Below, piece after piece: positions 5,990-59,635 of a stretch of DNA of 64,000 nucleotides (the first letter of the stretch is position 1; every line of letters begins with the position of its first letter). The stretch covers positions 31,496,001 to 31,560,000 of the forward strand of contig OX597822.1 in NCBI GenBank assembly GCA_951406725.2, read 5' to 3'. A program made the position numbers and the translations under genes. This DNA comes from Octopus vulgaris. Its lineage: Eukaryota. The notes beneath the pieces were generated by a model. It saw only the letters and a program-made list of their open reading frames with translations. It made no database searches and was not told the DNA's origin.

Positions 5990-6560
5990 TATCAGCCGCA
6001 GAAACCTTCTTCATTTTCTATAACCGGACTATTTCGTACTTAAGAGGGTTGTATTTATCTATATTTCCGCCATTCTTGTTGACTATTCGTGGGTTAAGGG
6101 GGTATGCAACATCAACTTTATAGCATATGTAGTGCACCTTGTCCAACACCTGATCTGTTTGGATTTGGAAATCCCAGAGGATTTTCCTAATCTTTGACTC
6201 CACCGCTCTCTGCGGTTTGTTCTCATACCATGTCTTCCCTCTCTCTAGCCCCTACTTTCCCAATGTAGCACTGTCACTACCTGATCGTAATCGCCACAAC
6301 TTGTAGTGATTTTGGGCAAGTCTAGGGCATTTGTTCCTGACTTGGGCAATGGTTCCACCCACTCTGTTGCAGCGGAGACACTTACTCATTCTTAAGGTCA
6401 ACTCTGCACTTCTTCATTCTTAAGGTTGACTCTCCAGTTTCTGACCAACGCTGCCAATTTAGTGCCCTCGATCTCATTTTTTAAAGATTCCTCTCATCAG
6501 CCAATGTGACCTATTTTTCCAGCAAATTCTGTTGTAGCTATATGGAATTGATTGTGCAGA
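5990..6560 (-). mobile_element. Decayed R4/Dong-type (restriction-like endonuclease) non-LTR element fragment
   Basis: KILWDFQIQTD..DVAYP..KY.PLKYEI.RL motif; adjacent (AAT)n-like tract. Confidence 0.7.
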
Positions 6561-14799: not shown

Positions 14800-15390
14800 G
14801 CAAAGTTTTGTTATTCCAGATTCGGGGGAATCGCTTTAACAGCACGTCGAACACATCCTCTCAAATACAGAATCTGATATAAAATGACCCAAATTGCTTA
14901 TGAAATAGAAATGTATGAGCCGACTATTTGTTTTTCGATAGCAAATGTGTCTAGACAAAGCAACTCCACCGGGAATCTCGTGATTATCTGCTTTTTTGAC
15001 AGAAAGATCGTCATTTATGTCCACTGGGTTCACTGTGGTCAAAAGTTCCACAAAACGTATCTTGTAAAGATGTTGATGGAGTTCAAAAAGAGGTTTCATC
15101 ATCACGGCCAGAACAACTGCATTAGGATTGTACACACCTTCACAGCGTCACCCTGGCAACCAAATAATTGATAGAAATGCGCATCATATATGTCTGTTAC
15201 CTGTCTAGAGTCTCTACGCTGAACGAGAGCCTCGGGAGCATTCGTTTTGAAGACAATGAGAAAATGAAGATAACTGCGATAAGATTCCTGGGCCTTCAGA
15301 ACATGGAAATGACTGCGACAAGGGTTCTGGATACAGAAAATGAATATGCCTGCGACAGGAGCTCTCACTTCAAGGGAACACTCACGAATA
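14800..15390 (+). mobile_element. Decayed mariner transposase fragment
   Basis: RQSNSTGNLVIICFFDRKIVIYVHWVHCGQKFHKTY resembles mariner SAGKVM..FFD..G.....VP.GQTVN..YY. Confidence 0.7.
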
Positions 15391-15798
15391 GGTTGAATCG
15401 TAACAACAATTGCACTGAAATCAGAGACCTTGCGCTAAAATTTGAACTCAATATTGATTTAGCTATACAATGATACAATTAACGAACAATATACAATGCA
15501 CAAACGTATAACGATTGAATTGAATCAGAGTAGTATGTATGGACATGAGCCACTCACTAAGAAACAATTAAAACTCTCCGTATCCCGAATGCGGGGTAGG
15601 TCAGTTAGTATGGAGAGGTTGATAAATGTGATACTAGGGACTTCGAAATGAAAACTATAGTCGAAAAATTGATTGAATTTGAAAAGATTTAGTTAAAACG
15701 CATATTTAGAAGCTGTCGTTCCACTCGCCCCCAGCTATCTTTCTTTCTCCATTCTATCTCTCTGTAAATGTAATTACATTCATATAAATATATACACA

Positions 15799-22475: not shown

Positions 22476-22799
22476 AGATAATAACATTAGATAATGTTAT
22501 TTACATAGTTTATAAATAATTATAAAGTATGTAGTGCACATAGTCAAATTAGAGTTATGAGGTGAAACTAAAGCACGTATGCAGAGCAAATGGCTAAAGT
22601 CAGTTGGGTGAGAAGATGGGGCATTTCCAGAGAAGCGCTCAATCTGAATAGTGTCCTATCAACACTGTTGGGATCCAAAGCCGGAGCATTTCTGATGTTG
22701 ATAATCAAAGAATAAAATTAAATGTGTGTATGTGGGATGTGTGTGTAGGAAAGATATTATGTGGTTGGGTGGAAATCAAGTGGGTGGATATGCATAATG

Positions 22800-23220
22800 A
22801 TACGTATAATAATAGCCAGCAATGTTGGCTGGAGAATTGCCATGGGATGAACCATCAAGTGAATGTTGTGAATACACAGACTGGAACAAGCGCTATACTT
22901 TATGTTCTCCGCGGAACAAAATTGAAAATATGGCTTTGTCTCTATTAAGGAAAAGCATAATAGAAAACAGCGAAAAACGTGATAGAATTCCACAGATAAA
23001 AAAAGAACCAATGGTTTTCAAAGAACTTGAGAAAATCTATACCAATACAGTTAGAGACCTTTTCTAATGAACCTGGAACATTTGAACGTAGACATTGAGG
23101 CCTAGACCAGTCTTCGCCTTCCGCTGTTGGAATATTTGATCATCAGTTCTCCTTGCCCGCGCCCGACGATATTTTCCGTGCAACAGAGAACCCATCATCT
23201 GCTGTTGATTCTATAAAAGT
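22800..23220 (+). pseudogene. CHEK1: CHK1 (checkpoint kinase 1) processed-pseudogene fragment: kinase C-lobe and linker
   Basis: [62 protein letters not shown] matches CHK1 [23 protein letters not shown]...[30 protein letters not shown]; no introns, 5' truncated, frameshifted. Confidence 0.85.
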
Positions 23221-25522: not shown

Positions 25523-27215
25523 AGAAAGAGAGAGTGAGAGAGGCGATATATATACACGTATGCATGTAACACGTATCCAAATATAGGAGTGTATACAAAA
25601 TCTATGCAAATGAATAAGAAAGAGATCACCAAGGCGCTTGCCAACATTGAGAACGAAGGCAGCATATACGAACAAGCTCATGAATTATTCCACATATAAC
25701 AGCAGAAGAACAGACAATTAGGCAATTAGAATGTGATATACGTATGCCCTAACCAGTTTGTATATACAGAAAAACAAAGTTGAGCAGAAGGAAAACAAAA
25801 CGATCCATTCGTAGATAATATCATTCATACGAAATTAATCAAAATTTAGGCGTATTTTTGATATAGATGTATGGACAGGTCTTGAAAAAGTTTGGTTTCC
25901 CAATCAGTAATGGGATTCGTTACTGATGTTAAGAAATGTTAATAACTTCCTATTGAAATGTTATGCCTCATATTTCATAGTGTATTTTCGCTATGTTTGA
26001 AATTCTCATGAGTTGAGATTGTGATCTGTTTTCTTCTTTTTTAATCATATAGTAAGTAATAGTGAACCAGGTGGATCGCAATCAAGTATAAGCACTTTCT
26101 CCATTTCCTCTCCCTTCGCGAAAAGGACAAGAGGGATGCACCAGTACTCAGTATGTACCTATTACATATCTACGTGTGTAAATGTTATGCCAAACTAACA
26201 CTTAATTCTGAACTATATACATAATGAACTCTAACAGGAGGTTATTGTTATCGCTGCTGTTGCATTCCAAATATTAACTATTGATATTTTTAGCTTAAGA
26301 CAAATAAGTTAAAAGTAATTGTAAAAAATTGCTGTTCATATCCACATGAAACAGCGAGATGGGTGTTATGAAACAAAACAAAATAATAAATAAAATAAAA
26401 AATCATTTTAAAAATCCAAAGCATTATATCAAAGTAATTTATGTGATTATATTTGCCAAACTTATTCTTCCGATCGTTTAACAAAACGAGTTATTTGTGC
26501 GTTCTATAAAAGAGATTCAAATTCTGGTTTAACAAAGAATCATGTATGCATGAATGTTGCAAAGTTCAAACTAACTCAATAGACATCTAATGTTTATGTT
26601 TATCCCAGTATTGTCATCAAACGACAAGGAATTATTTATTAGAATAAAAGAATCAACAGTAACACATGACTATTATCAGATAAGCAATTAGCAATTGTAA
26701 TAATGTTAGATATCTACGATGATGGACGGAGCAGTTTCTTTAATTATCCTTCGAGGGAAAGTAATATTGCTTACTAATAATGCAATGACTCCAGAAAAAT
26801 ATTTTGAGTGAGATTAGGATCAATGAATCCACTCCCGTTTGTAACTGTTACATACTGTATCGACCAGGGCACATGTTAATATGTATTCAGTCGATTCTGG
26901 AACGATGTATCGCAAAGTATATGTCGAACGTAGAAAAAAAATATATATATATATATTTGTTATATTTTTACTTCTTCAAAAATATGTTTCCTCTCGAACT
27001 GCACTTTCTACGTCTTTTGATCGAATCCCCTGCCATTTAACCCAGAGTCTCCTAGCCTCAAAATATGTAATCAAAGTGTCATTGGCCCCAAGATTATCGT
27101 GCGGTTTACCAGGTATTTGGATAATTTCTACCTCCAAGATTTCGCTAGATATGGAGCATACGTAGCCTGGATTTTATCTGCTGCATTTCCTGATTTCGTA
27201 TGTATGTATGTATGT

Positions 27216-27581: not shown

Positions 27582-27944
27582 TACTTAAGTATGTATGAGC
27601 AGATTTGTATGCTTTATGTATGCATACTCATGCATAAACTTGCATGTCTAGACATGCTCATATGTATTTAGATGATAAACCTCTGGTAAGTTTTATAGAT
27701 TTTTCAGTTCCAATGATGGATCTGTTGTTTTCGAATTAGCTTTCTCCTTTCTGGTTTTGAGAAGCCTAATTTCTCAAGATTGGTATGTAGGTAGTGTGTT
27801 ACATGTTCCAAGGCCCCAATATTTAGAGGTATAAACTTGAACTTTTAAACCGGATTGATATCTATGTATGTATATATGTGTGTGCATATGTGCGCGCGTC
27901 TCTGTTTTGTGTGTGTACATATATATATATTCACTTTCATATTT

Positions 27945-31765: not shown

Positions 31766-32279
31766 ATTTCTTTTATTTCTAGTTCACTCAACTTGCAAAG
31801 GTGAGAAATGATTCTAAGGAGAGAGTCCCGTCTTGAGACGAGCATATATACTGGAAATCTGCCTTAAAGAATTGTCTCTGGAAGGACATTTGGTCATCAT
31901 ATGTGTGTGTATTTGTGTAGATGTGTGTGTGTGTGTGCTTATGTGTGTGTATGTTTGTATGCATTTGTATGTGTGTGAACATATATGCACAGATGGTATT
32001 ATTGTGTACGTACGAATTTACTTGTCCGTTCATATTTTGATAACAACACTTTATTTTGTCCAGTGTTATATGCGTATTTTCTTCATATTTCCATAGGTTA
32101 ATATTACAAGTTTCTTCGAAGATCTCTATATCTCTGTATCAACACTATTAAATATGTTTTATTTCTTAGACTACATCGGTTTCTGCTTTTTTTTCTAATA
32201 TGTTATACTAGTATTCAACAGCGAAAACAACTTGATTTATTTTTCTGAGTGCAAAACAGAATTTTATTTAGAGAGGAAG

Positions 32280-33730: not shown

Positions 33731-33849
33731 AGGGTACAAAACAGAGAGTGAGGTGGAGGACAGAAAATAGATATGAGATATGTAGGGATGTATATGTATG
33801 TATGTATGTATACATTCGTGCATGTATGTATATGAGAAAGAAAGTGGTC

Positions 33850-33999
33850 TATATAATTTATTGCTGCTGAATCTTTCACATCAAAGATGGTCAACACGTC
33901 CTGGAATTTACATTGTGCGGTGTAGACATCGTCAGTATTTGACTGTTAGATGTTTGGGGGAAGACCTCGACGCTATTAGTTTCCACAGACAATATTTTG
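33850..33999 (-). pseudogene. CFAP57: CFAP57-like exon remnant (WD40)
   Basis: Acceptor ttatcgcctgcag; VFPQTSNSQILTMS...(frameshift)VLTIFDV vs ALSISPNRRYLAIS...AITIYEL. Confidence 0.6.
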
Positions 34000-34381
34000 C
34001 TGCAGGCGATAACAAATATTGTTCATGTACATCTTCGTTGGGTTACAACGCCTGCGCACTTATTCAAAAAGATGTCTATAAAGATTAAAGTGTCTCTCTG
34101 CGCAATTATCTTGTGTCTCTGTAGTATGGTTAATTTTTTTTGTTTTTACGCCTATCATCTTATATATGTTTCTTTCGGTATAAGTAGTCAGTAAAATTAG
34201 TATAGAATTCGAAAATACAATTTCTGCACACCGAGAGTGCGTGATAGAGTGAGAGAGAGAGAGAGAGAGATAAAGAGAGAGAGAGTGGGAGAGTGGGGGA
34301 GAGAGAGAAAGAGAGAAAGAAAGAAGGACAGAAAGAAAGACAGCACGAGAAAGAGCGGAGATAATGGTTTTATATACATAT

Positions 34382-34767
34382 ATTCTTTTATTCTTTTACT
34401 TGTTTCAGTCATTTGACAACGGCCATGCTGGAGCACCGCCTCTCATCGAGCAAATCCACCCCAGGACTTATTCTTTGTAAGCTTAGTACTTATTCTATCG
34501 GTATCTTTTGCTGAACTGCTATGTTACGGGGACGTAAGCACACTAGCATCGGTTGTCAAGCGATGTTGGGGGAACAAACAGAGACACACAAACATATGCA
34601 CACATATATATTTATACACATATACGACGGGATTCTTTCAGTTTCCGTCTACGAAATCCACTCGCAAGGCCCGAGGCTATAGTAGAAGACACTTGCCGAA
34701 GGTGCCAGGAAGTGGGACTGAACCCGGAACCATGTGGTTGCTAACCAAGCTACTTACCACATAGTCA
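34382..34767 (-). mobile_element. SINE family B, near full length
   Basis: tRNA-like head (gtggtaagtagcttg..ggttccgggttcagtccc) through the tail. Confidence 0.9.
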
Positions 34768-34789
34768 TATTCAGCGTGTAGCTGTAGTT

Positions 34790-34946
34790 AACTTTGGAAT
34801 TGACTAGGTGCCTGTAGATATTTCAAGACAATCTACAGCCACAGAATATACATACTACGCACTACGAGATTTTCTATGTATGCTTTCTGAACATTTGGGC
34901 ATTTAACATAGTAAATCTGATCAATAAGTATTCGGACTGTTGCCAT
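34790..34946 (-). pseudogene. CFAP57: CFAP57-like exon 1 remnant (MATVRILIDQIYYVKCPNVQKAYI...)
   Basis: ATG at 34946-34944. The hydrophobic pattern resembles the CFAP57 N-terminus ([24 protein letters not shown]). Position is consistent with the downstream exon order. Confidence 0.5.
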
Positions 34947-35048
34947 AGTAACGACGGTAAAACATGAGAGTAAAGCCGCTTGGTACAGATTAACCATAAA
35001 CTCTGCTGGGCATGCGCAATACCTTTTTACGTTCTAGCTCACTTCCGC
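34939..35048. promoter_or_regulatory. Promoter motif cluster: RFX X-box (34939-34952), NRF1-like (35007-35018), ETS/GABP-like (35040-35048)
   Basis: GTTGCCATAGTAAC, TGGGCATGCGCA and CACTTCCGC within 110 bp at the start of a cilia-gene homologue; RFX X-boxes are the canonical ciliary-gene element. Confidence 0.7.
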
Positions 35049-35371
35049 TGTTTAGTACAGTGCTTGAAAAGGTGTGTAGCGTTTGATCGTCGCAATGACT
35101 ATCAAATTTCGCCAAAAGCTTGGGGATACCTGCCTGCTCAATGATAATGGACTGAAGTGAACCGTATATAATCCTTGATTATAAACAGTGTATAGAAATA
35201 TGAATCTTTGTAGAATCACTGGGGATAGGTTGTGTTCGAATGATACGTATAGGTGTTTAATAATTATGTACTTTGATTTATGTCATTCTAATTATGGTAA
35301 AGGTAATTACATCACTGACTAGAAATCAATTGATCAATGGCTAAACCACAAAAGGCTGGCACCTCAAAATA

Positions 35372-35652
<281 letters not shown>

Positions 35653-35686
35653 TACAGTGTACTTTTAAACACATGAGATGGCCATA

Positions 35687-35965
35687 ATAGGGCATATAAC
35701 ACACTAGAAGGAGTAGTTAAAATCCAAACCACTATTAGAGGTCATTTCGAAAGAGAACGAAAAGTAAAATCATTTACCCTCTATTTCCTGGACCATGGTT
35801 TCAAGCTATCTTCAGCAAATAAAATAAAATTATTTTATTTGCAGAAGATAGCTTGAAATCATGGCCCAGGAAATAGAGGTTAAATGATTTTCTTTTTCTT
35901 TTTCTTTCGAAATTGCCTCTAATAATGGTTTGGATTTTAACTACTCCTTGTAGCGGGTTAGATGT

Positions 35966-35970
<5 letters not shown>
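35687..35970. repeat. Imperfect ~140-bp-arm inverted repeat between (TA)n tracts, with a minimal hammerhead core in the left arm
   Basis: Centre 35828-35829; minus strand 35815-35791 reads CTGAAGA-TAGCTT-GAAACCATGGTC. Confidence 0.8.
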
Positions 35971-36005
<35 letters not shown>

Positions 36006-40548: not shown

Positions 40549-41574
40549 TGTATGTTATAGACATATACAAACACATGGACACACACATGCATCTTTAAAC
40601 ATAATTGCATATACAGCATATCATAGTATGAGGTTGTACGGGATTCTAAGTATATCGATCCATCGAACCAATCGGATATTAAATGTACAAAGTAATTCCA
40701 TTTGAGCCGACCATTTGCGCATGTTATAGGTTGTAGCCAACATAAGAAAGCAAGACTGCTGCAATAAATCACATCACCTATTCGAACATTTACTCTATTT
40801 TATTTTTATCTATATTTAGTTTTATAGTTATGTAATTTCTCTGGTATGAGCATCATTTTAGATAATATCTTATTTCTAGAAGAATCCATCTAAAATTATG
40901 ATTCTAGAGATTGATTGCGTTACGGTCATATCTGTAAGATCTAGTAGAAATAAACCTACTGGATGTTCTTTAAGGTCCGAATGACAACCTAAAGGTTGAA
41001 GAAACAACTGTTTCTTGGTAATTATGATTTTAAAATGTCAATACCATATTCTATTTTGGCCAGTCATTCCCAGTTTCTTTTCACATCAGCTTTAGTATCA
41101 TTTCACTTGCAGCGTTTACACTATTACTCCTATTTTAGATTATGCAATACTTTTAAGTGCAAAAGGAAAACAAAAGCACTCAATTGACTACACCGAAGAC
41201 TCGTAAACCAAATACTGGTCCATCTCGATTTCATAGCATTTGGAGTAAATAAAATGGTATAATGCACTTTTATTCTATATTAGCCCCGCTATCTAAAGGT
41301 AAAATAAATATGGACAGCGTGAGCAATATATTATAAAACCCAAGCGCTTCAATATTTTTCGTTTCGTAGTAGAATCGCTATCCAAATACTGAGACAACGT
41401 AATATGTATATGTATATATATATATATTTATTGAGAGAATTACAGTTTACGAATTAAAATACAATTAAGATTCAGTTGAATTAGATCATTAAATTGAGGT
41501 ACATTGTCTAGTCGGAGTAACATGCGTAATCAACAATATTTACCTGTCATTACTAGATATTTACATCCAGCATT

Positions 41575-41701
41575 AGCAGGATAATGTAGATACGAATGTA
41601 CCAAATCCAATTTAAATTATAGATCCGATTCTGGGGTTGTTCATTAGTGTGGCGTAGGTATAAAATGTAAATAAATGGCGCTTACTTCATATATATATAT
41701 A

Positions 41702-41749
<48 letters not shown>

Positions 41750-43080
41750 GAAGCATGTGAATGTTCATAAATTCTTGATCTTCACTTATTAGTCATCTCA
41801 CAGAAAGTTATCTGAAATCATGACGCAAGTGCAACAGCCACTTGGTGCATGAGTGCCAGCCACATGATATTCTCGCAGTGCATGGATATACAGGACATAA
41901 CATGGACACAGCTGATCCTTTTTATGATTGAACTTCATGAATTCATTACGGCCGTTTCTAATGACGCATTTAATTCATTAATAAGTACATCACATCATTG
42001 CAAATAAATCGTTTTCGGCAAATGAATTCATGATCTTCAAACATAAAAAAGATCATTCTGTCGAACAGAATGGTAACAGGATCAATGTATATATTTCTAC
42101 TCCGTGAATTTGTTAATAATGATGAATAAGTTGAGCTGACCTTTATGTCTAAAGATCATAAATCCATCTGACGAAAACGGTTTGTTTGCAATGATGTAAT
42201 GTTCCCATTAATCAATTAAAGGAGTCGTTAGAAATGGCCGCAATTAATTGACGCCTGCAGCTCTTTGTTATATATGTAGTAATCCCTAGCCATATCACGA
42301 TTCTCCGATCGGGGTTTAATATTTAAGCTTACCTTCATGGTGTTGTTTAGCATTTACAATAAAATAATTATACACAAATTATAAAAATAATAAACAAAAA
42401 TATACAGTATAGTACTTTTTTCACTTCCTGGATTTTCACCTATCCTGTGGGGTTTCGGAAAGTAACGCACGCGATAGTCGAGGGATTACGGTGTGTATAT
42501 ATATATATAATAACAAAATAGTAAGTAAAACATATGCATATATACATACATATATGTACGTACCTACATCTATATGTATATATGCATGCATTTATGGTTA
42601 CAGAACACAAAAAAAAAAACGAACGTCGAACACAATGAGAAGCGAAAACATAAAAACAGAACCATGGAAACGGACATTCTTTTAAACAAGGAAAAAACAG
42701 GGTAGAAGACATACAACACAAGGAAAATTCCCCTTCTTCAGCCTCCTCCGTTTCGTCTACTCCGCGTTATATATATATATATATATCTATATATAACACG
42801 CACACACATACACACACATATATGATATATATACAGATGATTTAGTTATAAGGATTCCTTTGAATCTAGGCACATCAAGAGACACGATGCCAGAAACGGC
42901 TACTGATGTAAACAAAATTGAAGACATATAGTGGTAGTAGGATAATGTAGATACAAAAGTATCAAATCCAATTTAAATTGTAGATTCGATTCGGGAGATG
43001 TTCATTATTTTGGCGTAGGTATAAAACAAATGGAGCTTACTTCATATATGTAGGTGTAATCTCTTTCTCTCTCTCTCTCT

Positions 43081-43162
<82 letters not shown>

Positions 43163-43272
43163 AGGGAGAGAATACAGAAACATGTGTAGGTGTATGTTCA
43201 TAAATTCTTGATGTTCACTTATTAGTCATCTCACAGAAAGTTATCTGATATTAGTGCGCAAGTGCAACACCC
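41575..43272 (+). repeat. Diverged direct duplication (41575-41840 vs 42935-43272), each copy split by a microsatellite
   Basis: ggataatgtagatac..aaatccaatttaaatt..ggcgtaggtataaaa..cttacttcatat and gttcataaattcttgat..cacttattagtcatctcacagaaagttatctga shared. Confidence 0.85.
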
Positions 43273-44094
43273 GCTTTTTTGTGGCTTGATAAATCAAGCA
43301 TTAATTACGTTAATCCGATTTTTGACTTGCGAATTATATTGTAAAGTAAGATTTTCACATCACAGACAGCTGCCTTAAACTTTACGGTCTCACAGACCGT
43401 GAAAGTTGTTTTACAATATTTTCTGTCATATTGCCACCTACGGATTTTGTTTCTTCACGCATATACCGCTCTGACGTCTCTTTCCCGACGCTATACAAAT
43501 TTCTATTCAGAGATATTTCACAGGCATTTGGGGGTGGGGATATGTATCATATATCTGTGTTATTTGAACGTACCCTTTTGTATTCATGTCTCATATTGGA
43601 GCTCCACCTTTCCTTGTCTGCTAAAAATGTCTTCTCCTTTGATAGTTTTACGAAATATATTTCCTGTATTCTATGTTTTAGAGAAGAATAACTAAATTAG
43701 TTGTTTTTATAGAAAAACAACTTGGGAACTTTCGAGAAATTACGGAGGATTCTAACTTCGCAAATACTCGTGGGTATAAAGAGGAAGTTAAATATTCCGA
43801 AACCTGGATAGCAAGACAGCTGTGGAAGGGGAGTTCTGACGAATCAGGAATAAATCTTGGTAGCAGCTCCTTCCCTTCTATGGTGGAAAGACTTTACATG
43901 ATTATATAATAAACATCCACTTGAACGATGCATAAGCAAAGGGCTGGAAATTTCTTGGCTGTAAGAATATCGAGAAAGACCGGCTGGAGGCCCAACCTTC
44001 CGAGTTCTACTACAGGGCTTAGAGAATCTGAAGGACTTCTGCAATGTGAGGATATGCTGAATAAAACCATATTTAACTGATCATTCTGTATTTT

Positions 44095-51896: not shown

Positions 51897-52809
51897 TACG
51901 AGGTGGTATCAGAAATTTCCAGACTAGTTATGTAGCTCGCCAACAGATAGCTGCACATAGTTGCCTGTGTAGTGGGAGCTAGCAGTGGCCCCCAGGAGAC
52001 AGTGTACGGAATGACATTGATGTTTTTACTTTGCAAGTTACGAAACTGATGATTTGGTGATCACGTGTACGCTGTAGTCTGCAATTCTATCTTGGAGAGA
52101 AAGAAAAAGCGTTAAACTTGGGACGTCTGCTACAGAGATACTGAGCTTGTTTAGGTAAGATTACAATGGTGAAGGCAATGGGTAGCACGCAGTGTTTCGA
52201 CTGGTACGAATGTTTCGAAGGTGGGAAAATATCAATGCAAAACAATGAACGATTTGGAAGACGAGCCTCACCACCCCACCGAAATATGATACTGTGCATC
52301 GAGAATTCCCCCCTCCACCAGGGCCAGACCCTCAAGTGAGAGTTCTACCGCGACGTTTTGAAGTGGTTGGGGGAGGTGGGGAACATTCTTTGAAAGCGAC
52401 CGGATCTGTGGAGCGGGAAAAATTGGATACTTCACGAGGACAATACACCTTGTCATCGAAATCTCCTTATCCGTGAGTTTCTCGCCGAAGCAACGTGGTG
52501 CCGCTTCCGTATGCACGTTATTCGGCAGATTTAGAACCTACGGCTTTCCGTCTCTTCCCAAAGACGAAAGTTCAACTCAAAGGTCACCGATTTAACCCCA
52601 TTGTCGAGATCCAGAATGAATCCCAGATCCTCGATTCACATACAGAAAATGACTTCCAGGCCGGATTTCAAAAGTGAAAGGAACGCAAGGACTGGTGCAT
52701 TTCTATGCAAGATGTCCCCTTTGAAGGAAATTATATTAAAACTTAGATGAATAAGTTTTATTTCTTTCTTAAACATAACAAGTCCTGGAACATTTTCATA
52801 CCCCCTCGT
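51897..52809 (+). mobile_element. Internally deleted mariner with both TIRs
   Basis: Left tacgaggtggtatcagaaatttccagactagt; right acaagtcctggaacattttcataccccctcgt; YSADLEPTAFRLFPKTK (YSPDLAP motif). Confidence 0.85.
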
Positions 52810-54951: not shown

Positions 54952-55622
54952 TATGTTTGACTTTTGCTTTATATTTGTACAAGTTGGCTCCAAGTCTCAC
55001 CCAGAGACCTCAAGAGACAACAGGGTTGGAAGTTCATGTTGTTGTTATGCCTAGTGTGCCATATATTTGGGGGGTGGGGATGTTGTACTAATGAATGTCT
55101 AAAAAGAAAAAAAAAAGGTTTTTTTTTTTTTTTTTTTTTTTTTAAACCGAAAATTATGTTTGTTTTAAACCTTGAGATTACATAGAGAGTATTTTGCGTA
55201 GGATATGAGCAGTTCCCATGAGCACTATCTTTTGAACTTCTACCATTTTTGGGTTTCCTGGTATCTGAGTTAGGTAGCTATCAGCCCCTTTTGCTATCAT
55301 TCCCAGGGCACCTATGACAACAGGTATTGTTTTAGTCTTCAGCTTCCACATTTTGCTGATTTCTATTTCAAGATCTTTATATTTGCTCAGTTTTTGGTAG
55401 GTCTTGACAGATACGTTTATATCGATTGGGACAGTCATATCAATGAGGAGGCATGTTCTTTGTTTGAAGTTTTTCAATATGATGTCTGGCCTATTTGCAT
55501 CTATCTTCCTGTCAGTTTGAATGGTGAAGTTCCAGAGGAGTGAGATGTGGTCATTTTCAAGCACTGGGGGTGGTTTGTGTTCCCACCAGTTTTTGTCATG
55601 GGGCAAATCCAGGTTTTTACAG
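54949..55622 (-). mobile_element. R4/Dong-type non-LTR retrotransposon 3' part (restriction-like endonuclease domain)
   Basis: Open frame LLWNFTIQTDRKIDANRPDII..CLLIDMTVP..KLSKYKDL..IPVVIGALG; flanked by (AAT)n. Confidence 0.9.
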
Positions 55623-55684
<62 letters not shown>

Positions 55685-55685
<1 letters not shown>

Positions 55686-55830
55686 TGTTTTTGCACAGCT
55701 TCTAACGCTGGAGATGTACTATGGTGCCAGTTGTTCATTATCAGTGAACTAAGGCAACACCCCTTATTTTTCGAGCACCTTCCCAAGTATTTGAGCGGTT
55801 CGAAGCAGTACTGTTTACTGCAGTACTGTT
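55685..55830 (-). mobile_element. 3' end of a second R4/Dong-type subfamily
   Basis: LQ*TVLLRTAQILGKVLEK* is homologous to VQKIVLMGTAHILRKILSM*; different 3' UTR. Confidence 0.7.
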
Positions 55831-56210
55831 TTCTGCATTACTGTTTTCTGCAGTACTGTTTTCTGCATTACTGTTTTCTGCAGTACTGTTTTCTGCATTA
55901 CTGTTTTCTGCATTACAGTTTTCTGCAGTACTGTTTTCCGCATCACTGTTTTCTGCAGCACTGTTTTCTGCATTACTGTTTTCTGCATTACTGTTTTCTG
56001 CAGTACTGTTTTCTGCATCACTGTTTTCTGCATTACTGTTTTCTGCAGTACTGTTTTCTGTAGTACTGTTTTCTGCATTACTGTTTTCTGCATCACTGTT
56101 TTCTGCATCACTGTTTTCTGCATCACTGTTTTCTGCATTACTGTTTTCTGCATTACTGTTTTCTTCATTACTGTTTTCTGCATTACTGTTTTCTATATTA
56201 CTGTTTTCTG
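55806..56210. repeat. 15-bp minisatellite (ctgttttctgca[g/t][t/c]a), about 27 units
   Basis: Direct inspection; the minus strand translates as (QKTV[M/L])n. Confidence 0.95.
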
Positions 56211-59034: not shown

Positions 59035-59635
59035 ATGAACGTATGTATACTTTCAGGCGTGTGGACACCATTCGCTGCGAAAATAATTCCAAGAGAAAAT
59101 TCTTCTCCCAGTGGGCGTGTGAAAACAGTTTGGGCTGTGAATGACGTCCTTCTAGTTCAGGAAGCATGTGTTAATCCCTTCTTTTGGATCAGGTGTTACA
59201 AACACAAAATGTGCCTTCCACCGTATGTGCGATTTGTTCTTATACAATAATCCGAATGTAGTCGAACATATTGAATATGAATTTTACGCGAACTTACTTT
59301 ATTCAGAGATATTTCCGGTGACTGCATGTGATTGTAGCTTGCTGTTCTGATAAAACAGTGCATTATCGTTAACGGGTTGTTAAAGGCAGCTCTGGCCTTA
59401 ATAACTGTCAAAAAGATCTATCTCTCCCTCTCTCTGTATATATATATACAGAGAGAGAGAGAGAGAGAGAACTCTGTGTGTAAGTATGTGGGGGCGCGGG
59501 TACATGCGAATAAGATGTAAACGCCTACAACAAAACTCAGGAGATCAATTAGTCTCAATGATTTGGGACCATTTCAAAGACGATGTAAATATCCTTAGCC
59601 AGAAAGAAATTGATCTTTGCATTATTTATGTTAAA

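Follow-up and report, generated by a model that had tools for sequence, protein, structure and literature searches.

A tight cluster of RFX-, NRF1- and ETS-type motifs as a probable TATA-less promoter in Octopus vulgaris

Does a tight group of three transcription factor motifs in the genome of Octopus vulgaris mark a working promoter and, if so, which strand would it serve? A preliminary description of this DNA had proposed an intact RFX/NRF1/ETS promoter on a dead minus-strand gene whose start codon lies inside the X-box, with a pseudogene-derived lncRNA or a divergent plus-strand transcript as its possible product. We examined the cluster within the window, i.e., the whole stretch of 64,000 nucleotides, which is AT-rich, about one third low-complexity and interspersed with many repeats.

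Motif content of the cluster

As previously described, motifs of RFX, NRF1 and ETS type were found within 110 bp, each of the three strings occurring a single time in the 64-kb window:

34939..34952, unstranded: X-box-like RFX palindrome GTTGCCATAGTAAC, two mismatches relative to a perfect palindrome
35007..35018, unstranded: NRF1-like site TGGGCATGCGCA, one mismatch relative to the palindrome searched
35040..35048, minus strand: ETS/GABP-like site CACTTCCGC, exact match to SCGGAAGTG

The surrounding segment (34780-35370) is neither low-complexity nor repeated elsewhere within the window. Taken singly, the X-box, NRF1 and ETS motifs are not significant, with a match found somewhere in 64 kb in 11, 7 and 19 of 100 shuffles, respectively. 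Taken jointly, the cluster is by far tighter than chance gives: with loose motif definitions, a third-order Markov background predicts about 1.5e-5 triad clusters per window, for consensus strings picked after the sequence had been seen. GC and CpG contents are raised only mildly, as 14% of 2258 unmasked windows reach the GC content of the cluster region (44% over 171 bp) and 7.5% of them reach its 10 CpG.

By motif content, this putative promoter resembles known RFX-target and NRF1/ETS TATA-less promoters. Like the X-box ciliary promoters targeted by human RFX1-3 and C. elegans DAF-19, it bears an imperfect palindrome of 14 bp in agreement with the consensus strings on either strand. This palindrome would lie less than 500 bp from the start predicted from the donor at 35071; functional human X-boxes are mostly found no more than 500 bp upstream or downstream of the start site (PMC5838959). 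Unlike those promoters, the octopus locus is paired with no recognized ciliary target gene, and X-box scans conducted without conservation are described as having high false-positive rates (PMC1794439).

The NRF1-like and ETS-like motifs are clustered 22 bp apart without a TATA box, as in the human TATA-less bidirectional promoters described by the Puffin and ProCapNet models. The nearest TATA-like sequence is at 35165, none lies ahead of the predicted start, and a strong 5' splice site follows downstream on one strand. In contrast with the human promoters, the locus is devoid of a CpG island. The donor also lies only 23 nt from the ETS site, whereas human U1 motifs are most conserved from 50 bp past the start (10.1101/2023.06.27.546584).

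A scan of metagenome contigs for the X-box/NRF1/ETS triad in the same order revealed three loci among 241 million records (L001, 1853-1964; L002, 3001-3115; L003, 817-931), each within a first coding exon whose gene is CABIT-like. L003 differs little from L002. In L001 and L002 the coding exon that contains the triad is conserved, with a CABIT match below the cut-off, and no homology was found between the three loci and the DNA of the window. Their triad is probably a coincidence with the encoded residues. Its presence in a coding exon of three metagenome loci thus indicates that coincidence can produce the triad when the collection is very large. We also observed that the X-box-like 14-mer is identical between L001 and L002, though flanking third positions differ.

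Elsewhere in the window, we observed several unrelated sequences. A broken, apparently intron-less copy of a Chk1 kinase gene, with stops around it, lies on the plus strand at 22651-23200, with a match to Chk1 residues 198-271 (E 6e-17). On the minus strand, a 46-codon frame at 27707-27844 shares 81% identity with a portion of P0012, a hypothetical protein of Octopus vulgaris. A SAM_TNK match at this position (E 1.8e-4, below the cut-off) was rejected as part of the candidate minus-strand gene because the match to P0012 is confined there and the sequence resembles 55181-55837; it is probably a retroelement remnant annotated as a gene. We take the 219-codon minus-strand frame at 55181-55837 to be the endonuclease end of a non-LTR retrotransposon. 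This frame obtained no Pfam support; 14 of 55 of its residues are identical to P0012, and a similar shorter piece is found at 6021-6251. Two plus-strand sequences (14878-15470 and 52145-52750) presumably are remnants of mariner transposases, and their frames gave no Pfam match. A miniature-transposon-like long inverted-repeat element lies between two (TA)n runs at about 35655-35990 (self-match at 35787-35870), and self-BLAST revealed two related segments about 1.4 kb apart (41574-41843 and 42935-43276). Finally, a protein-like 65-codon frame at 26979-27173 on the minus strand has a donor at 27110 that scores well (96th percentile), and our searches with it returned no homolog.

Direction of the putative promoter

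Two strong donors are located on the plus strand downstream of the ETS-like site:

35069..35077, plus strand: strong 5' splice site AAG/GTGTGT, last exon base 35071, 23 nt past the ETS site
35300..35308, plus strand: second strong donor, last exon base 35302, score 8.3, 99th percentile

Donor 35071 ranks 5th of 2274 unmasked plus-strand GT sites when scored with a generic matrix. By hand arithmetic, a donor this strong has about a 1.3% chance of occurring within 100 bp (5 sites in 37,914 unmasked bases). We infer that it may be the end of a short first exon starting near the ETS site. Strong donors are present nearby on the minus strand too: one, at 35043, falls within the ETS motif, and another, at 34758, adjoins a repeat copy.

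The distribution of AATAAA was also asymmetric. As would be expected of a non-productive direction, this signal is enriched toward the minus direction at 3 kb (7 vs 2.4, P 0.011) and 5 kb (9 vs 3.3, P 0.008); the asymmetry is not significant at 2 kb (P 0.42) or 8 kb (P 0.057). No significant depletion was found in the plus direction (P 0.14-0.82), and over 35-64 kb we counted 24 AATAAA on the plus strand vs 8 on the minus strand. No change of sign in base skews was seen around 35 kb. In a search of sequencing runs, which listed no RNA run with the locus, four runs presumed to be RNA contained 8-11% of the sequence words and three other runs 20-32%, shares that count neither for nor against expression.

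The strong donor at 35071 agrees with the divergent plus-strand transcript proposed earlier, but no later exon of it was recognized. At the Pfam cut-off, plus-strand exons were found in 0 of 64 frames, 0 of 4 frames and none of three read-through frames to 40 kb, and 34620-64000 gave no Rfam match. A long first intron or a non-coding transcript could explain this blank plus strand. We observed two stretches of exon-like character on this strand. At 43345-43909, in unique DNA, three overlapping open frames of 75-116 codons, with no Pfam match and with what by eye looks like an acceptor near 43680, are a candidate for a further exon of the putative plus-strand transcript. At 59193-59317, an exon-like open frame has strong acceptor and donor scores and no Pfam match.

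The likeliest reading is that the promoter is probably real and selected. More specifically, we hold with evenly balanced confidence that the cluster is a live RNA polymerase II promoter of an ordinary, TATA-less kind, the stable transcript of which would probably come from the plus strand. NRF1 and an ETS factor would open the site and fire both ways, RFX, about 100 bp upstream, would add an input from ciliated cells or testis, and the plus-strand product would be favored by U1 snRNP on 35071. A short, likely non-coding first exon would end at the predicted donor 35071, with the remainder of the plus-strand gene or lncRNA unrecognized or beyond the window. The promoter rules applied here come from human data. 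In one study, NRF1 and ETS are active on either strand, and a U1 motif determines which way the mature transcript runs (10.1101/2023.06.27.546584). NRF1/ETS motifs also drive two-strand initiation in PMC11160661, whose accessible portion does not mention RFX.

The X-box ATG and the candidate minus-strand gene

The minus-strand ATG at 34946-34944 is, as the preliminary description had it, the central CAT of the X-box. However, the apparent oddity of a start codon inside the X-box proved to be an artefact, since the ATG comes with the palindrome itself. All eight variants of the X-box consensus GTTRCCATRGYAAC bear an opposite-strand ATG with a purine at -3 and a G at +4, and of 40 matches simulated from a looser X-box pattern, 16 contained an ATG. 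These results show that the ATG is a by-product of the palindrome; because any full X-box yields a Kozak-type ATG, its presence is not a finding. Furthermore, the X-box look-alike of L001 and L002 gives an M-A-T start in a frame that is not used, which indicates that an X-box makes a false start codon unaided. X-boxes therefore constitute a trap and can be mistaken for gene starts, since a full X-box brings a strong-Kozak ATG. An in-frame ATG is also present upstream of the X-box ATG, at 34997 on the minus strand.

The candidate minus-strand gene would be composed of the following pieces:

34833..34946, minus strand: candidate exon 1, a 37-codon frame from the X-box ATG to its stop, moderate donors at 34863 and 34856
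34060..34118, minus strand: candidate exon 2, acceptor at the 78th and donor at the 84th percentile
33835..33906, minus strand: EF-hand-like 24-codon stretch, possible decayed exon, best following donor at the 56th percentile
32022..32133, minus strand: candidate exon 3, acceptor at the 80th and donor at the 94th percentile
31793..31877, minus strand: candidate exon 4, EF-hand-like, acceptor at the 90th and donor at the 30th percentile only

Splice sites were scored with a generic matrix that considers sequence only. Minus-strand donors after the X-box ATG reach the 87th-88th percentile at most, and the best-scoring donor of exon 1 runs into a stop (model M2). An open chain of 113 codons can also be drawn (34946-34863, 34118-34060, 32133-32022, 31877-31793), in which the six internal splice sites are all at or above the 78th percentile and candidate exons 3 and 4 are open, in phase and stop-free. 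Four chains pass the same threshold, among which this one has the lowest score. The amino acid make-up of the chain does not differ from that of random open stretches (P 0.29).

We found no parent protein for the proposed pseudogene with ruined exons that would start at the X-box ATG. The exon 1 frame has no homolog among 5.8 billion proteins (96-2000 aa covered), no usable match in the ESM Atlas and no homolog in PDB or Pfam, and a PDB sequence search returned no homolog for the frames at 34.1-33.8 kb. Exons 3-4 have no homolog among 1.84 billion representatives. Queried together with their intron, they gave 11 matches centred on the repeat of this intron, and its His-Thr repeat was present in 5 of the 5 matches examined, one of which (P0008) also carries an EF-hand. 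PDB sequence searches with pieces of the window gave matches at chance level only, and Pfam searches on 18 read-through frames and on sets of 28 and 107 frames returned none at the curated cut-off. AlphaFold2 modelled the exon 3-4 frame alone with a mean pLDDT of 42. The protein collection searched does include Octopus vulgaris predictions, and such searches are weak for short divergent pieces.

Exon 4 nevertheless aligns without gaps to the EF-hand of P0008 (12 of 28 residues identical), and its only two PDB matches are EF-hand-type calcium/lanthanide binders (E 0.45 and 1.3). EF-hand clusters also make up seven of the ten rows shown by the Atlas features for exons 3-4 (0.80-0.82), a result that the tool grades as a lead only. 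While these features recall the EF-hand proteins of the Pfam families EF-hand_1/6/7/8, no piece of the window matched an EF-hand family in Pfam at E up to 10. A helix-loop-helix with a 12-residue loop passing the Pfam model was not found, and the likeness remains sub-threshold. The stretch at 33906-33835 had no PDB or Pfam match and scored 9 with an ad hoc EF-hand pattern, a score tied by 13 others and exceeded by five. This pattern score was devised after exon 4 had been seen, which makes its top rank circular. The EF-hand-like minus-strand fragments may be the remains of a gene and are not needed to explain the promoter motifs.

A possible likeness of exon 1 and exons 3-4 to EFCAB9, a subunit of CatSper, was considered, and EFCAB9 was returned by none of the sequence searches. 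Likenesses to SPATA6, NICN1, EH domains, FAM69 and EFCAB9 contradict one another, came from no tool and were set aside as unreliable. EFCAB9 has been gained and lost in step with CatSper (10.1101/459487). In PMC6660944, CatSper is listed as absent from Mollusca; one passage reads otherwise, and Octopus is unnamed in the main text. A kinship with EFCAB9 is made less likely by this listing.

For the candidate minus-strand gene neither death nor activity is shown, because a comparable open two-exon link was also obtained from 53 of 120 control ATGs that open 28 codons. Likewise, ruin of the exons is not a forced reading because the open 113-codon chain exists; both open and broken chains can be drawn. 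Of the proposed intact promoter on a dead gene, the promoter is likely in view of the cluster statistic, but the dead gene was neither identified nor proved dead.

Alternative readings and significance of the locus

Could the cluster be the promoter of a decayed minus-strand EF-hand gene, kept since it now drives a pseudogene-derived minus-strand lncRNA? The EF-hand-like pieces follow one another in order at 1-3 kb from the X-box along the minus strand, the stretch at 33906-33835 is without a usable donor, the best donor of exon 1 leads to the stop of model M2, and no annotated protein matches even though Octopus vulgaris predictions are in the collection. However, every EF-hand signal is below significance, the parent protein is lacking, and the composition of the chain is that of random open stretches. 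Furthermore, the strongest directional cue, donor 35071, is on the plus strand, and the minus direction is rich in polyA signals. Intact motifs would argue for selection here, with a probability of 0.002 for three or fewer changes in 35 motif bases at 30% exon drift. Because this probability rises to 0.53 at 10% drift, the argument holds only if the exons are old ruins. We regard this reading as unlikely, although it comes first among the alternatives.

Also unlikely, and placed second, is the view that the motifs are idle now, either left over from a gene that died recently or from an old transposon end, or clustered by luck. At neutral drift of less than about 10%, the motifs would be expected to stay intact even in the absence of selection (P 0.53-0.90), and both the mild CpG and GC enrichment and the coincidental same-order triads of the metagenome contigs are consistent with this view. 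Those three coincidences were nonetheless drawn from 241 million records, whereas the joint expectation for the cluster is about 1.5e-5 per window. Moreover, the region is unique within the window, and an independent feature, the strong donor, sits where a promoter would put it.

Slightly less likely again is a live unannotated minus-strand gene encoding a small divergent sperm/cilia EF-hand protein that would start at the X-box ATG or at 34997. Ciliary genes typically carry an X-box close to their start (PMC5838959, PMC1794439), and the 113-codon chain, with its well-scored internal sites and its exons 3 and 4 in phase and without stops, would suit such a gene. Against it stand the comparable links obtained from control ATGs, the rank of the chain as lowest of four, the weak donor of exon 4, the negative composition test and the lack of homologs for exon 1 and exons 3-4 in the large protein collections. 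Least probable by our estimate is a live gene for a divergent sperm/cilia EF-hand protein, possibly kin to EFCAB9, arranged head-to-head with a plus-strand transcript on one RFX/NRF1/ETS promoter and with its start and first codons doubling as the RFX site.

Should a minus-strand EF-hand-like gene be true and tied to sperm calcium signalling, the locus would matter more. Among the papers listed by a literature search that covered mainly openly accessible journals, we found no mapping of RFX/NRF1/ETS promoters in cephalopods or spiralians. Read as a live TATA-less promoter with a probable plus-strand product, the cluster could serve as a test site, perhaps for a gene that is still unannotated. 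It would add to the signs that cephalopods may follow the RFX/NRF1/ETS promoter grammar described in human and nematode.
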